Source of the DNA: a virus
Taxonomy: Duplodnaviria; Heunggongvirae; Uroviricota; Caudoviricetes
IMG/VR virus record: IMGVR_UViG_2541047430_000021
Length of the DNA: 12,502 bases
Direction: 5' to 3' (one strand)
Shown: in pieces, positions 1 to 12,470 of the stretch
How positions within the stretch are numbered: position 1 is the first letter of the stretch
How the letters are laid out: every line of letters starts with the position of its first letter
Notes under the pieces: model-generated
The model's input: the letters and a program-made list of their open reading frames with translations, nothing else
Told to the model about the DNA's origin: nothing
The model's database searches: none
Translations under genes and position numbers: made by a program

Positions 1-387
1 GTGGGCCCGTCGTCCGTCTGGCACCATCCATCACAGCGATAAAGGCTCTCAGTATGTGTCACTGGCCTATACGGAGCGACTAGAAGAAGCCGGATTACTG
101 GCATCAACAGGGAGTACAGGCGACTCGTATGACAACGCGATGGCTGAGAGCATCAATGGTCTTTACAAAGCGGAGGTAATACACCGTAAGAGCTGGAAAA
201 ACCGTGCAGAAGTGGAACTGGCCACACTAACGTGGGTGGACTGGTATAACAATCGACGATTGCTGGGAAGGCTGGGCCATACTCCTCCGGCAGAAGCAGA
301 AAAAGCTTATTATGCTTCCATCGGAAACGATGATCTGGCAGCCTGAGTTCACAGATAAAGCACTCTCCAGGAAACCCGGGGCGGTTC
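1..387 (+). mobile_element. IS3-family insertion sequence, right-hand portion (continues left of the window); right end approximately 385-390
   Basis: Transposase ORF ends at 346. The minus-strand rusA-like frame loses RusA-like sequence (DLDNILKAPLD then unrelated EPPRVSWRVLYL) at about 385-390, placing the IS/prophage junction there. The exact terminal inverted repeat cannot be confirmed without the left end. Confidence 0.65.
2..346 (+). CDS. IS3-family transposase (OrfB, DDE/integrase core), C-terminal part; 5' partial
   Basis: The frame is open from the window edge; translation WARRPSGTIHHSDKGSQYVSLAYTERLEEAGLLASTGSTGDSYDNAMAESINGLYKAEV... carries the HSD(K/R)GSQY and DxYDNA(x)AES motifs typical of IS3-family OrfB. 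Stop TGA at 344-346. Confidence 0.85.
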   Translation, partial: WARRPSGTIHHSDKGSQYVSLAYTERLEEAGLLASTGSTGDSYDNAMAESINGLYKAEVIHRKSWKNRAEVELATLTWVDWYNNRRLLGRLGHTPPAEAEKAYYASIGNDDLAA

Positions 388-624
388 ATCCAGTGGTGCT
401 TTCAGGATATTGTCCAGGTCACGACGGCGCTTATCCGGTGGCTCTGCAATAATCTTTATCACCAGCCTTCCGGACAGGTTTAATTTCAGCCGCTGCTGGC
501 GAACAATAAGTGCCACATCCCGGCGATAACGCTCACCGGCTTTTGATACAAAATATGTGCAGCCACGACGTCGCCAGTAGGTGTTCACCGTCGGCGGGTA
601 AGGCAAAACAAACACTATACGCAT
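349..624 (-). pseudogene. rusA: rusA-like Holliday junction resolvase, 3'-truncated by the IS insertion
   Basis: ATG at 624-622 with GAGG SD 7 nt upstream. N-terminal ~79 aa (LPYPPTVNTYWRRRG..., PDKRRRDLDNILKAPLD) resemble E. coli RusA (LPWPPSNNRYYR..., PDRRRRDLDNLQKAAFD); the last ~12 codons are IS-derived. Confidence 0.75.
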
Positions 625-2035: not shown

Positions 2036-2063
2036 AGGAAAAAACAAAACCCGCCGAAGCGGG
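2036..2063 (-). terminator. Rho-independent terminator of the hok transcript
   Basis: On the minus strand: CCCGC-UUCG-GCGGG hairpin (plus 2050-2063) followed by UUUUGUUUUUU (plus 2036-2049), about 70 nt after the hok stop. Confidence 0.75.
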
Positions 2064-2133
2064 TTAAGTGCGGGTGCGTTGAGGATGCCTGATTCATCAG
2101 AGGTGGCGAGGGATTTCTCCCTCGCCGGGTCTC

Positions 2134-2289
2134 TTACTCCTCAGGTTCGTAAGCTGTGAAGACAGCGACCTCCGTCTGGCCGGTTCGGATTCGTACCTCG
2201 CAGAGGTCTTTCCTCGTTACCAGTGCCGTCACTATGACGGTAATACAGATGACGATCAGGGCGATTAACATCGCCTTTTGCTGCTTCAT
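2134..2289 (-). CDS. hok: Hok-family type I toxin (51 aa membrane peptide)
   Basis: Translation MKQQKAMLIALIVICITVIVTALVTRKDLCEVRIRTGQTEVAVFTAYEPEE is near-identical to HokD/RelF as I recall it. AGGAG SD 9 nt upstream of ATG at 2289-2287. An in-frame upstream ATG at 2346 with its own GAGG SD could be a mok-like start. Confidence 0.9.
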   Translation of the reverse strand: MKQQKAMLIALIVICITVIVTALVTRKDLCEVRIRTGQTEVAVFTAYEPEE

Positions 2290-2338
2290 AGCCTGCTTCT
2301 CCTTGCCTTTCGGCGCGTAAGAGGCTAACCTACATGTG

Positions 2339-2410
2339 TCTAGCATGAAATTGGCCTCAGATTAATGTTAGGCGTCTTGCAGGACGCGTAATGTTAACTG
2401 GGGCTTTTCT
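2339..2410 (+). ncRNA. putative Sok-like antisense RNA (hypothesis)
   Basis: Plus-strand region antisense to the SD and ATG at 2346-2362. Candidate promoter TTGCCT(2304-2309)-17 nt-TAACCT(2327-2332). Hairpins at 2372-2387 (GCGTC-TTGCAG-GACGC) and CCUCAG...CUGGGG, followed by a U-rich tail CUUUUCUCU. Boundaries are inferred, not measured. Confidence 0.3.
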
Positions 2411-2464
2411 CTGTCTGCCTTACGGTGGCATGCCCGAGGCAGACAGCCTCAAGCACCCGCAGCA

Positions 2465-2492
2465 ATTCTACTTAACTCTCGCTTTACCGCAA
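2465..2492 (-). promoter_or_regulatory. putative sigma70 promoter of the hok mRNA
   Basis: Minus strand: -35 TTGCGG (plus 2487-2492), 16-nt spacer, -10 TAGAAT (plus 2465-2470). Predicted start near 2457 gives a ~410-nt transcript ending at the terminator. Confidence 0.45.
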
Positions 2493-2534: not shown

Positions 2535-2639
2535 TCAGTTCCCTAGTCGATCCATCAAAAACACAACCAGGCAGTAAACGCCCACAACAGCAATAACAGC
2601 CAGCGCACCTTCCATTGCCAGTGAAATATCATCCGACAT
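2535..2639 (-). CDS. small hydrophobic peptide (34 aa, single predicted transmembrane helix)
   Basis: ATG at 2639-2637 preceded by AAAGGAGGG SD; translation MSDDISLAMEGALAVIAVVGVYCLVVFLMDRLGN. Below the ORF-track size cutoff. Confidence 0.45.
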   Translation of the reverse strand: MSDDISLAMEGALAVIAVVGVYCLVVFLMDRLGN

Positions 2640-7064: not shown

Positions 7065-7150
7065 CTCGGTTTAGTGTTTTTTTGCGAGTTTAGTGTTTAA
7101 TAAACCATTAAGTCAAGTATTTGCTTGTTTAGTGATTACTAAAGATAATT
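7065..7150. promoter_or_regulatory. OR-like divergent promoter/operator region
   Basis: Minus-strand promoter: -35 TTGACT (plus 7111-7116), -10 TAAACT (about 7087-7092). Plus-strand promoter: -35 TTGCTT (7121-7126), 17 nt, -10 GATAAT (7144-7149). GTTTAGTG motifs at 7069, 7088 and 7127; near-palindromes GTTTAATAAAC (7094-7104) and TTTAGTGATTACTAAA (7128-7143). Confidence 0.5.
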
Positions 7151-7155
7151 ACCAC

Positions 7156-7527
7156 ATGCAAAAAAAAGAAATTCGCCGTTTACGTCTCAAGGAGTGGTTT
7201 AAAGATAAAACTCTGCCACCCAAAGAGAAGAGCTACCTATCTCAACTAATGAGTGGGAGAGCCTCGTTTGGAGAAAAGGCTGCCAGAAGAATAGAGCAAA
7301 CATACGGGATGCCGGAAGGGTATCTGGATGCGGAATACGCAGAACAACCGGGGGGTTCTCCACCACATGCAGGGTTAACGTCTAATCAACTGGAATTATT
7401 GCAGATTTTTTCAGCCTTCCCTGAGGATGAGCAACGCCAGATAATCAGCGAGTTAAAGCAGAAAAAAGAATCAATGGAAGATCTCATAGCGAGATGGATT
7501 GCGGCGCAAAAATGCCGCCGCGCCTGA
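7156..7527 (+). CDS. CI-position HTH regulator (PaaR2-like), probably leaderless
   Basis: ATG at 7156 lies ~7 nt after the GATAAT -10 and has no SD. HTH-like segment KSYLSQLMSGRASFGEKAARRIEQTYGMPEGYLD. The ORF-track start at 7093 is a GTG inside the operator region. Confidence 0.65.
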   Translation: MQKKEIRRLRLKEWFKDKTLPPKEKSYLSQLMSGRASFGEKAARRIEQTYGMPEGYLDAEYAEQPGGSPPHAGLTSNQLELLQIFSAFPEDEQRQIISELKQKKESMEDLIARWIAAQKCRRA

Positions 7528-7547: not shown

Positions 7548-7739
7548 ATGAATAGAGCCCTTTCACCAATGGTTTCTGAATTTGAAACCATTGAACAAGA
7601 AAACAGTTACAACGAATGGCTGCGTGCGAAAGTAGCAACGAGCCTTGCAGATCCGCGCCCAGCAATTCCCCATGACGAAGTTGAGCGCAGAATGGCAGAA
7701 CGCTTTGCTAAGATGCGCAAGGAACGGAGCAAGCAGTAA
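7548..7739 (+). CDS. paaA2: ParE-associated antitoxin (PaaA2-like, 63 aa)
   Basis: GGAGG SD 5 nt before ATG 7548; 63-aa product directly upstream of the ParE toxin gene (1-nt gap). Length and arrangement match my recollection of the three-component paaR2-paaA2-parE2 system; the symbol is assigned from memory. Confidence 0.7.
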   Translation: MNRALSPMVSEFETIEQENSYNEWLRAKVATSLADPRPAIPHDEVERRMAERFAKMRKERSKQ

Positions 7740-7740
7740 A

Positions 7741-8019
7741 ATGTTACCCGTGTTATGGCTTGAAAGCGCAGATACCGACCTAGATGATATAACTAGTTAT
7801 ATTGCTCGTTTCGACATAGATGCGGCTGAACGCTTATGGCAGCGATTAAGGGGTTGTGTGCTGCCGTTATCCGAACATCCGTATTTATACCCACCAAGCG
7901 ACAGAGTACCTGGCTTGCGTGAGATTGTAGCCCACCCTAACTATATAATTCTATACCGCGTAACAACATCAAGCGTTGAAGTAGTAAACGTGATCCACGC
8001 AAGACGCCAGTTTCCCTAA
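7741..8019 (+). CDS. parE2: ParE/RelE-superfamily toxin (92 aa)
   Basis: Translation MLPVLWLESADTDLDDITSYIARFDIDAAERLWQRLRGCVLPLSEHPYLYPPSDRVPGLREIVAHPNYIILYRVTTSSVEVVNVIHARRQFP shows the ParE/RelE pattern (PG-RE-V--P-YIILYRV----V-V--V-HARR). Confidence 0.85.
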   Translation: MLPVLWLESADTDLDDITSYIARFDIDAAERLWQRLRGCVLPLSEHPYLYPPSDRVPGLREIVAHPNYIILYRVTTSSVEVVNVIHARRQFP

Positions 8020-8961: not shown

Positions 8962-9317
8962 TAGCTAACCAACGAAGCTAAGGTTGGTAATTAAGGAGTT
9001 CTCCACGGGTGAGGTGGAGTGCGTGCGCCGGACACGGGTGAGCATACGGCACTGACAGTTTACTGAAAGGATATTTCCCTGAAAAGTCAGACCATAACGC
9101 GAAAGCGCACGGCGAGGTAGCTGGTTCATAGATAGCCTGTCGTTAAATTTTCGTCGACCGTGCGCTTCCGGTTGTGGCAATCCGCGAAATGGCGCGGCGG
9201 TAAGTATGGAGGGGTTATTCCTTCCCCCGTTGAGGACACCGGGTTGTCAGGTTGACCATACGCTTAAGTGACAACCCCGCTGCAACGCCCTCTGTTATCA
9301 ATTTTCTGGTGACGTTT

Positions 9318-9360
9318 GGCGGTATCAGTTTTACTCCGTGACTGCTCTGCCGCCCTTTTT
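9318..9360 (+). terminator. terminator-like hairpin plus T5 run (tL-like), weak
   Basis: GGCGG (9318-9322) ... CCGCC (9350-9354) with inner CAG/CTG pairing, followed by TTTTT (9356-9360). The loop is long, so efficiency is uncertain. Confidence 0.3.
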
Positions 9361-9529: not shown

Positions 9530-9718
9530 ATGGAAACGTTATTACCAAACGTTAATACGTCTGAAGGTTGTTTTGAAATTGGTGTCACTATCAGTAACCC
9601 TGTATTTACTGAAGATGCCATTAACAAGAGAAAACACGAACGGGAGCTATTAAATAAAATATGCATTCTTTCAATGCTGGCCCGTTTACGTCCGATACAA
9701 AAAGGATGCTGGCAATGA
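9530..9718 (+). CDS. hypothetical early-left protein (62 aa)
   Basis: GAGGA SD 7 nt before ATG 9530; stop TGA 9716-9718 overlaps the next start (ATGA). Confidence 0.5.
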   Translation: METLLPNVNTSEGCFEIGVTISNPVFTEDAINKRKHERELLNKICILSMLARLRPIQKGCWQ

Positions 9719-9998: not shown

Positions 9999-12470
9999 AT
10001 GAGTAAAGTCTTTATTTGCGCCGCCATTCCGGACGAACAGGCAATAAAGGAAGAAGGTGCCGTCGCTGTAGCCACTGCCATTGAAGCCGGTGATGAACGT
10101 CGCGCCCGCGCAAAATTTCACTGGCAATTCCTGGAACATTATCCGGCTGCTCAGGACTGCGCTTATAAATTTCTTGTTTGCGAGGATAAACCCGGTATAC
10201 CCCGCCCTGCCCTCGATTCCTGGGATGCTGAATATATGCAGGAAAACCGCTGGGATGAGGCGTCTGCTTCCTTTGTCCCGGTCGAGACTGAATCCGATCC
10301 GATGAACGTCACTTTTGACAACCTGGCCCCTGAAGTACAGAACGCTGTCATGGTTAAGTTCGACACATGTGAAAACATCACTGTTGATATGGTGATTAGC
10401 GCACAGGAATTGTTGCAGGAAGACATGGCAACATTCGACGGCCATATCGTTGAAGCGTTGATGAAAATGCCAGAAGTTAACGCTATGTATCCGGAGCTTA
10501 AGCTGCATGCCATCGGGTGGGTTAAGCATAAATGTAAGCCTGGTGCCAAATGGCCCGAAATTCAGGCAGAGATGCGCATCTGGAAAAAACGTCGCGAAGG
10601 TGAACGCAAGGAAGCCGGAAAATACACGTCTGTTGTTGATCTCGCCCGCGCCAGAGCCAATCAACAGCACACTGAAAATTCAACAGGAAAAATCAACCCG
10701 GTCATTGCTGCCATTCATCGCGAATACAAGCAGACATGGAAAACACTGGATGACGAACTGGCCTACGCTCTCTGGCCTGGTGATGTGGATGCCGGAAACA
10801 TTGACGGCAGCATCCATCGCTGGGCAAAAAATGAAGTTATCGACAACGGCCGCGAAGACTGGAAGCGTATCTCGGCATCAATGCGCAAACAGCCTGATGC
10901 CCTTCGCTACGACCGCCAGACTATTTTTGGCCTTGTCCGTGAACGTCCGATCGACATTCACAAAGACCCTGTGGCACTGAACAAATACATTACTGAATAC
11001 CTGACTACAAAGGGCGTGTTTGAAGATGAAGGAACAAATCAGAGCGCAACTGACACTCTCTCGTCGCCAGTACCAGAAACTGATGCAGTGGAAACGGCAA
11101 TTCCGGACAACGAAAAAACCGAATGCAAAGTGGAAGTCGAACCATCTGTAGAGCGTGAGGGGCCGTTCTACTTCCTCTTCACCGACAAGGATGGCGAAAA
11201 ATACGGTCGCGCAAACAAACTTTCTGGTCTGGATAAGGCGCTGGCTGCCGGGGCTACTGAAATCACAAAAGAAGAATATTTTGCCCGAAAAAATGGCACA
11301 TACACAGGCTTACCGCAAAATGCAAATACCGCACAAAATTCTGAACAACCAGAACCGGTAAAAGTTACCGCTGACGAAGTAAAGAAAATTATGCAGGCAG
11401 CCAATATCAGCCAGCCTGACGCCGAGGAACTGCTTGCAGTATCACGTGGTGAATTTGTTGAAGGGATTAGCGACCCGAATGATCCGAAATGGGTTAAGGG
11501 GATCCAGACCCGCGATTCTGTGAACCAGAACCAGCAAGAAACGGAACAGAACGACCAGAAAGCGGAACAAAACAGCCCAAATACGCAACAAAACGAGCCA
11601 GAAACGAAACAACCTGAACCAGTAGTGCAACAGGAACCGGAAAAGATCTGCACCGCCTGCGGTCAGAGCGGTGGCGGCAACTGCCCTGATTGTGGTGCGG
11701 TGATGGGTGACGCAACATACCAGGAAATATTCGATGGAGAGAATCAGCCTGAAGTTCAGGAAAATGATCCGGAGGAAATGGAAGGTACTGCACATCAGCA
11801 CAAGGAGAACACTGGCGGCAATCAGCATCATGCCAGCGATAGTGAAACTGGCGAGGCGTCAGATCCCTTAATTAAGGCGAACGGTCATCATAATCTCACA
11901 TCCACCAGCAGAGCGGGGATTCATCTGATGATCGATCTTGAAACCATGGGAAAAAATCCCGATGCCCCGATTATCTCAATAGGTGCAATATTTTTCGATC
12001 CGCAAACCGGAGATATGGGACCGGAATTTAGTAAGACTATCGATCTGGATACTGCTGGCGGAGTCATTGATCGGGACACCATGAAATGGTGGCTTAAACA
12101 ATCACGCGAAGCGCAATCTGCCATTATGACCGATGAAATCCCGTTAGATGATGCACTGTTACAATTGCGGGAATTTATCGACGAAAACTCCGGTGAATTT
12201 TTTGTTCATGTCTGGGGAAATGGAGCCAACTTCGACAACACGATTTTGCGCCGTTCATACGAACGGCAGGGGAGCCCCTGCCCGTGGCGTTACTACAACG
12301 ATCGCGATGTACGCACAATCGTTGAGCTGGGGAAAGCCATAGACTTCGATGCCAGAACGGCTATTCCATTCGAAGGTGAGCGCCATAATGCACTTGATGA
12401 CGCCCGTTACCAGGCAAAATACGTTTCAGCTATCTGGCAAAAACTGATCCCGAGTCAGGCTGATTTTTAA
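9999..12470 (+). CDS. prophage exonuclease (RecE position) with C-terminal DEDDh/DnaQ-like 3'-5' exonuclease domain
   Basis: 823-aa ORF with GAGG SD. C-terminus has the three DEDDh motifs: IDLETMG, VWGNGANFDNTIL, HNALDDARYQAKY. Internal CTACGQSGGGNCPDCG zinc-ribbon-like motif and a Q/E/N-rich low-complexity linker. Confidence 0.85.
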   Translation: MSKVFICAAIPDEQAIKEEGAVAVATAIEAGDERRARAKFHWQFLEHYPAAQDCAYKFLVCEDKPGIPRPALDSWDAEYMQENRWDEASASFVPVETESDPMNVTFDNLAPEVQNAVMVKFDTCENITVDMVISAQELLQEDMATFDGHIVEALMKMPEVNAMYPELKLHAIGWVKHKCKPGAKWPEIQAEMRIWKKRREGERKEAGKYTSVVDLARARANQQHTENSTGKINPVIAAIHREYKQTWKTLDDELAYALWPGDVDAGNIDGSIHRWAKNEVIDNGREDWKRISASMRKQPDALRYDRQTIFGLVRERPIDIHKDPVALNKYITEYLTTKGVFEDEGTNQSATDTLSSPVPETDAVETAIPDNEKTECKVEVEPSVEREGPFYFLFTDKDGEKYGRANKLSGLDKALAAGATEITKEEYFARKNGTYTGLPQNANTAQNSEQPEPVKVTADEVKKIMQAANISQPDAEELLAVSRGEFVEGISDPNDPKWVKGIQTRDSVNQNQQETEQNDQKAEQNSPNTQQNEPETKQPEPVVQQEPEKICTACGQSGGGNCPDCGAVMGDATYQEIFDGENQPEVQENDPEEMEGTAHQHKENTGGNQHHASDSETGEASDPLIKANGHHNLTSTSRAGIHLMIDLETMGKNPDAPIISIGAIFFDPQTGDMGPEFSKTIDLDTAGGVIDRDTMKWWLKQSREAQSAIMTDEIPLDDALLQLREFIDENSGEFFVHVWGNGANFDNTILRRSYERQGSPCPWRYYNDRDVRTIVELGKAIDFDARTAIPFEGERHNALDDARYQAKYVSAIWQKLIPSQADF

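Follow-up and report, generated by a model that had tools for sequence, protein, structure and literature searches.

Hok systems described so far

The hok mRNA of plasmid R1, studied by the Gerdes laboratory, has a two-state design: a closed form, in which the tac element is paired with fbi, and an open form, in which tac is paired with ucb. The R1 hok/sok system stabilizes plasmids and mildly excludes phage T4 at high copy number. Closer to the locus described here is hokW-sokW, carried by Sakai prophage 5 and by Stx2 and Stx1 converting phages, where HokW is toxic and is neutralized by Sok expressed from its own promoter (Takada et al., 2021; PMC8621323). In that study, a mutation in the -10 hexamer of sokW abolished the antitoxin activity, and a partial dependence on RNase III and Hfq was seen. 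Moreover, mitomycin C led to a RecA-dependent loss of Sok and the appearance of HokW, and about two-fold more phage was released after induction with hokW-sokW (PMC8621323). The HokD peptide is also toxic in published assays. Regarding their distribution, surveys report 14 Hok/Gef genes in the Sakai strain and up to 18 in O157:H7, as well as a 4-fold enrichment of hok genes in prophages, and in EDL933 the Rfam 'sok' hits have been catalogued, several of them with RNA-seq reads.

Due to the hokW-sokW study, the hok surveys and the EDL933 catalogue, the kind of element, the prophage location and the hokD name of the present locus are already known. What such a cassette does for its carrier is less uniform, as the functional precedents (R1, the chromosomal hokA/B/C and hokW) disagree.

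Organization of the cassette

The locus lies in a DNA stretch of 12,502 nucleotides from a tailed phage (IMG/VR record IMGVR_UViG_2541047430_000021), hereafter called the window. Positions 2039-2492 of its minus strand very probably hold a complete and seemingly undamaged hok/mok/sok cassette of the HokD/HokW subgroup, located in a lambdoid prophage of O157:H7 and most likely working in the manner of R1. It is a real, intact-looking and ordinary type I toxin-antitoxin cassette, and this structural reading is supported by the Rfam match, by folding, by a comparison of 39 loci and by the near-identity to the experimentally dissected hokW-sokW. The initial annotation, made from the sequence alone, had proposed a self-contained hok locus with its own promoter, a leader of about 170 nt, an in-frame upstream ATG with a Shine-Dalgarno sequence, a terminator with a UUCG tetraloop and a plus-strand region (2339-2410) that could encode a Sok-like antisense, and all of these features were found where it had placed them or at most 1-2 nt away (Table 1).

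Table 1. Features of the hok/mok/sok cassette and their positions in the window
Feature	Positions	Strand	Basis and remarks
hok promoter, -35 TTGCGG	2487-2492	-	read from sequence; 3/6 to consensus; common to hokW, the PPompW prophage copy and related locus L036
hok promoter, -10 TAGAAT	2465-2470	-	16-nt spacer; 6 nt before the GGG start at 2458
Predicted full-length hok mRNA (~415-420 nt)	2039-2458	-	5' end placed by Rfam model start and promoter geometry, 3' end by the terminator
tac, 5' box GGGUGCUUGAGG	2447-2458	-	pairs with fbi in the full-length fold, with ucb once the 3' end is gone
ucb AAGCCCC, alternative partner of tac	2400-2406	-	3'-truncated and leader folds; agrees with the Rfam consensus structure
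Sok-target hairpin GAGGC...GCCUC	2321-2358	-	forms in 3'-truncated and leader-only folds; present in the Rfam consensus
mok-like ORF, 70 codons, in frame with hok	2134-2346	-	ATG 2344-2346; GAGG 2355-2358, eight nt upstream
hok Shine-Dalgarno AAGGAG	2299-2304	-	9 nt before the ATG; within a block invariant across related loci
hok CDS, 51 aa, HokD-type toxin	2134-2289	-	PF01848; PGAP hokD
fbi, 3' fold-back box CCUCAACGCACCC	2072-2084	-	48 nt past the stop codon; family range +45 to +55
Intrinsic terminator	2039-2065	-	7-bp stem AACCCGC-UUCG-GCGGGUU (2048-2065) and U-run; identical in K-12 hokD and PPompW
sok promoter	2303-2331	+	-35 TTGCCT (2303-2308), 17-nt spacer, -10 TAACCT (2326-2331); both hexamers as in sokW, one base different in the spacer
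Predicted Sok RNA (~71-75 nt)	2338-2412	+	fold; ends inferred

The likeness of the peptide to HokD/RelF, noted in the initial annotation, holds for 50 of the 51 amino acids of K-12 HokD, the sole change being I16 for L16. The toxin scores 83.2 bits with the Hok/Gef family (PF01848, cutoff 22), while it stays under the cutoff of the NCBIfam Hok subfamily model (48 vs. 73). In the identical O157 locus, PGAP calls the gene hokD, and the RefSeq/PGAP annotation there comprises the 51-aa CDS only, with mok and sok omitted. As a separate observation, the codon of Hok Tyr47 (UAC, 2149-2151, minus strand) lies inside CUUACGAA, in a UACG context like that of TadA A-to-I editing sites. Such editing (Tyr to Cys) has been reported for hokB and is mentioned for hokC/D/E in the introduction of a preprint (bioRxiv 10.1101/2025.08.07.668861); if true for Tyr47, it would give Hok a third cysteine.

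The mok ATG occurs at the same position in most of the 39 loci compared below, 20-22 nt before GCCTCTTAC, and in most of them it is in frame with hok, giving an extended Hok of 69-71 aa. In four plasmid-type hokD-like copies (L006, L007, L012 and L013), mok is out of frame (68 codons), which fits a role for the translation of mok and not for its product.

Regarding the promoters, a consensus scan flagged neither that of hok (8/12) nor that of sok (7/12), both being under its threshold, and their support is therefore comparative, together with the identity to sokW. For the hok -10 hexamer, 35 related loci have an equivalent of the form TAnnnT, always equally far from the 5' box.

The leader and the two predicted alternative pairings of the mRNA

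A covariance-model search, proposed beforehand as a check, gave a match of the full RF01794 model to positions 2458-2284 of the minus strand (116.9 bits, cutoff 59, E = 1.2e-26), covering the leader, which measures 170 nt. This family is named 'sok antitoxin', but its match runs on the hok sense strand, from the 5' end of the mRNA to the hok AUG. From this position and strand it follows that the family models the hok leader, of which the true Sok is a partial complement; consequently, strand-specific counts based on it, such as those of the EDL933 tables, report reads of the hok leader and not of Sok.

The 419-nt mRNA folds with -176.7 kcal/mol (z = -8.3), and in this minimum-energy structure GGGUGCUUGAGG is paired to CCUCAACGCACCC. 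Fold-back complementarity between the mRNA ends, whose absence had been named in advance as counting against a functional locus, is therefore present. The tac-fbi duplex reaches -21.5 kcal/mol, compared to -14.8 ± 2.1 kcal/mol for dinucleotide-shuffled UTRs, a value matched by 8 of 1000 shuffles. Without its last ~50 nt, the mRNA is predicted to switch its structure: GGG-UGCU would then pair with AAGCCCC, and GAGGC...GCCUC would close the target hairpin. This hairpin contains the mok Shine-Dalgarno GAGG, the mok AUG and the loop CUAGACA (2337-2343), with CUAG of the YUNR type.

The Sok antisense candidate

The plus-strand candidate extends slightly beyond the region first suggested and folds into a free 9-nt 5' tail (GUCUAGCAU), one long hairpin and a CUUUUCUCU tail, with -32.9 kcal/mol and z = -6.2. 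Its 5' tail is complementary to the loop of the target hairpin, so that the predicted RNA has the promoter, the free complementary 5' tail and the terminator hairpin of a Sok gene. The same tail is found in the isolated temperate phage HannyBb.

The window copy could not be matched to any of the 'sok_n' RNA-seq entries of EDL933, as the spacing from DicF to sok (7211 vs. 6897 nt) and the listed motifs disagree. For this reason, no locus-specific expression is claimed for it.

Comparison with hokW-sokW, R1 and hokC

The nearest relative, hokW-sokW, has approximately 91% nucleotide identity to the window locus over 441 nt and comes from the same strain background. The 5' box, the -35 and -10 hexamers of sok, the Sok hairpin and the fbi box are identical, mok is in frame in both, and both loci are carried by prophages, each in the orientation of an early operon. 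[quoted passage not shown] Besides these similarities, there are differences in the Sok 5' tail and target loop (GUCUAGCAUGA in the window, GUUCAGCAUGG in sokW; 3 of 11 positions), in the C-terminus of the toxin (TAYEPEE compared to VDYESEK in HokW) and in the terminator with the UUCG loop, which hokW lacks. In addition, the window locus is placed on the PR/nin side and hokW on the PL/ea side.

The R1 system (hok/mok/sok, parB) is similar in the order and spacing of its elements, in the predicted two-state fold of the mRNA and in the design of Sok. However, its toxin is only distantly similar to that of the window (HokW and R1 Hok share 44% identity), the boxes are GGCGC/GCGCC instead of GGGUGC/GCACCC, and the Sok hairpin of the window is approximately 19 nt longer, with an RNA of ~75 nt compared to ~64 nt; the in-frame mok is a further difference from the R1 type. 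The hokC/mokC/sokC system (gef) resembles the window locus in its in-frame mok with a 69-70-aa extended product, its 5' box and a similar toxin core, but it is chromosomal and not prophage-borne, and its Sok hairpin is short (56 nt). Moreover, an insertion sequence sits at the 3' end of the K-12 hokC copy, where fbi, kept in the window locus, has been lost.

Conservation and covariation across related loci

A pattern scan with one genome per species gave 42 loci, which, together with phage, plasmid and K-12 copies, resulted in 39 distinct full-length loci from approximately 15 genera, carrying HokD/W-, HokC- and R1-type toxins. Of the 35 loci scored, 27 combine the 5' box GGGUGC with a 3' box of the GCACCC type, and in the other eight, of the R1 type, both boxes are altered to GGCGC/GCGCC. 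Within these compensatory classes (32 loci), the tac-fbi duplexes of the own class are 2.7-5.6 kcal/mol better than the swapped ones. The 3' box always lies 45-55 nt past the stop codon and is lost exactly where an insertion sequence occupies the 3' end (K-12 hokC and pPK8217); unlike those loci, which have no fbi, the window locus is uninterrupted.

The Sok design of tail, hairpin and U-tail is found in all 39 loci, with hairpins that vary in sequence and length yet still pair. One stem position shows a compensatory exchange, being G-C in 17 sequences and A-U in 12. When 29 Sok sequences were aligned, RNAalifold recovered the lower stem alone, because indels at the tip of the hairpin break the alignment, and the folds of the single sequences were used instead. 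In a set of 12 close relatives, there is almost no variation in the hok CDS or the Sok hairpin, and hypervariability within the transcript is limited to two spots, the target loop with the Sok tail (2348-2337) and the loop at the apex of the 5' hairpin. Loci that share a genome differ at 3-10 of the 11 Sok tail positions.

This hypervariability could be a selected specificity, or it could equally be drift, because a cis-antisense pair remains complementary after any mutation. A strict orthogonality of Sok between co-resident prophages was considered and is rejected as a rule because of two copies of O157:H7, that of the Stx2 phage (L003, 2501-2941) and that of the Stx1 phage (L056, 301-741), which are identical over 441 nt; one Sok specificity can therefore be shared by two co-resident prophages.

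Such redundancy is also what speaks for regarding the cassette as intact but physiologically silent, a selfish prophage passenger whose Sok is always in excess, so that Hok is never made naturally, as has been proposed for chromosomal hok loci. With 14-18 copies in O157:H7, and identical ones on the Stx1 and Stx2 phages, cross-protection by the same Sok would blunt any killing triggered by loss. However, all the regulatory elements are maintained from genus to genus, with changes that compensate each other, close relatives show hardly any variation in the hok CDS, and hokW, with its 91% identity, becomes active upon induction and alters the phage yield approximately two-fold. Silence is thus a possibility that we regard as doubtful, though not far-fetched. 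In any case, the window locus is one more of these 14-18 copies, and it would matter only if the copies proved to differ in Sok specificity or to take part in prophage induction.

As a side observation, a hok locus of the E. coli type with 94% identity occurs in L046 (PP818812.1), labelled as a phage of Actinobacillus pleuropneumoniae. This host label looks odd, as the cassette is otherwise confined to Enterobacteriaceae.

Genomic setting and relation to hokD of K-12

In a similarity search, 561 bases around the locus were 100% identical to chromosomes of E. coli O157:H7. According to PGAP, the genes follow each other on the hok strand in the order transcriptional regulator, YdaT, replication genes, DUF1627, DUF977, DUF551, a 34-aa ORF, hokD, a hypothetical gene, DUF968, RusA and Q. 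With the replication genes on one side and Q on the other, hok thus lies in the nin-like region of a lambdoid prophage, in line with the nin region named in the initial annotation. It had likewise been seen correctly that the locus is not downstream of relBE, as its upstream neighbours are the 34-aa ORF and the DUF551 gene. What was overstated is the novelty implied by this, since the relBE-hokD arrangement of K-12 is the exception: complete loci, counted as matches over 80% or more of the query, are present in 2866 of the 5426 complete genomes of E. coli.

K-12 genomes match only positions 2303-2040 of the window, with 97.4% identity, and the alignment joins 14 nt before the hok ATG, with relE upstream of the join. 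Therefore, K-12 hokD (relF, Qin prophage) is a truncated derivative. From that point, the DNA similarity runs through fbi and the terminator, so that K-12 hokD keeps the hok Shine-Dalgarno sequence, the CDS, the 3' box and the terminator, followed by the same downstream genes (a 92-aa hypothetical gene, YdfU/DUF968 and Q). Meanwhile, relE stands in place of the hok promoter, tac, ucb, the mok start, the sok promoter and the Sok gene. As read from this alignment, the K-12 gene appears as a remnant fused behind relBE and the window copy as the complete form. The two can be regarded as orthologues, as the window locus has both the HokD peptide and the hokD 3' flank beside the YdfU/Q block of a Qin-type prophage. 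The textbook hokD of K-12 is thus the truncated form of a full cassette common in E. coli, and the chief value of this result is for annotation.

Upstream of the cassette, a perfect 22-bp palindrome (CGATATGGGAATTCCCATATCG, positions 2505-2526), with an EcoRI site inside, lies in the gap that separates the small upstream ORF from the hok -35 hexamer. The PPompW prophage copy has this palindrome too and hokW does not, and in many genomes its edge is precisely where the similarity to the locus sets in (query positions 56-60). It may serve as an operator or mark a recombination boundary. The 34-aa ORF itself (MSDDISLAMEGALAVIAVVGVYCLVVFLMDRLGN, positions 2535-2639, minus strand), immediately 5' of the hok promoter, is hydrophobic, has no match in Pfam or NCBIfam and is annotated by PGAP as hypothetical.

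On the other side, at positions 1-348 and 349-624 (minus strand), the end of an IS1203 element, of the IS3 family, abuts a truncated rusA, which is a 91-aa ORF in the window compared to a 360-nt CDS (~119 aa) in strain PV15-279. This junction is found in one piece in only a few O157:H7 genomes.

With IS1203 in rusA, the prophage looks partly defective, and this has a bearing on prophage retention by post-segregational killing, in which Sok would disappear first upon prophage loss and Hok made from the stable mRNA would kill the cell. On plasmids, this is what R1 hok/sok classically does, and the cassette has its own promoters and terminator, being therefore independent of phage transcription. 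However, the chromosomal hokA/B/C gave no post-segregational killing when tested, and other copies with the same or a similar Sok can share the genome. Considering also the state of the prophage, we find retention unlikely as the function of this copy.

Proposed mode of action and its trigger

Following the R1 mechanism, the weak hok promoter would give a stable mRNA of ~419 nt, closed by the pairing of tac with fbi. A slow trimming of its 3' end would then remove fbi, and tac would pair with ucb, bringing the mok ribosome-binding site and AUG into the hairpin whose loop would be the landing site of Sok. For as long as the DNA persists and is transcribed, Sok, a short-lived RNA of ~75 nt, would bind this loop through its free 5' tail, blocking the translation of mok and hence of hok, and the duplex would be cleaved. 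Once the supply of Sok ends, mok and hok would be translated, and the 51-aa Hok would damage the inner membrane.

By analogy with the described systems, a production of Hok triggered by induction or by transcriptional shut-off through this R1 mechanism is the favoured reading, and in the prophage setting the trigger would most likely be prophage induction, as for hokW. The initial annotation had suggested instead post-segregational killing or abortive infection, which departs from what the nearest experiments suggest, as hokW-sokW aids phage release.

In an abortive infection or exclusion, a superinfecting lytic phage would stop the transcription of the host, Sok would decay and Hok would kill the cell before burst. 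The only evidence of this kind comes from R1 hok/sok on a high-copy plasmid, which cut the plating of T4 by 42% and its plaque size by ~85%, and the 4-fold enrichment of hok genes in prophages is in agreement with it. However, this effect on T4 is modest and was obtained at high copy number, hok shows no enrichment near defence systems, and hokW helped the resident phage instead. A role in exclusion is consequently improbable in our judgement.

In all eight contexts examined, hok and the early operon have the same orientation. In the window, where this operon is the early rightward one, read-through upon induction would run head-on into the sok promoter. This co-orientation was rejected as statistical evidence, as the contexts mostly share the downstream YdfU/RusA/Q block and are not independent. 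A more speculative proposal, to which we give a low probability, is that prophage hok/sok is wired into the phage programme instead of being a stand-alone addiction module: upon induction, read-through from the antiterminated early operon would collide with the convergent sok promoter, shut off Sok and time Hok as a lysis accessory, and the hypervariable Sok tail and loop would set specificity classes, with some co-resident prophages having private antidotes (the window locus and hokW) and others sharing them (the Stx1 and Stx2 phages).

Other elements of the window

Besides the cassette, the window contains a type II toxin-antitoxin pair (7548-8019, plus strand), formed by a PaaA2-type antitoxin (PF21217, 70.7 bits) and a ParE toxin (PF05016, 60.9 bits) and labelled by PGAP as belonging to the RelB/RelE-ParE family. 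It is preceded by a 144-aa ORF (7093-7527, plus strand), possibly encoding the regulator in a paaR-paaA-parE system of three components. An 823-aa ORF (9999-12470, plus strand) has a long, acidic and low-complexity N-terminal part without a family match, followed at its C-terminus by an Rv2179c-like 3'-5' exoribonuclease domain (PF16473, 222.7 bits). Finally, the DicF sRNA (9304-9355, plus strand; RF00039, 76.7 bits, full length) is followed by DicB (9533-9718, plus strand; PF05358, 123.5 bits), and both form the Qin-type pair of cell-division inhibitors, approximately 7 kb from hok.
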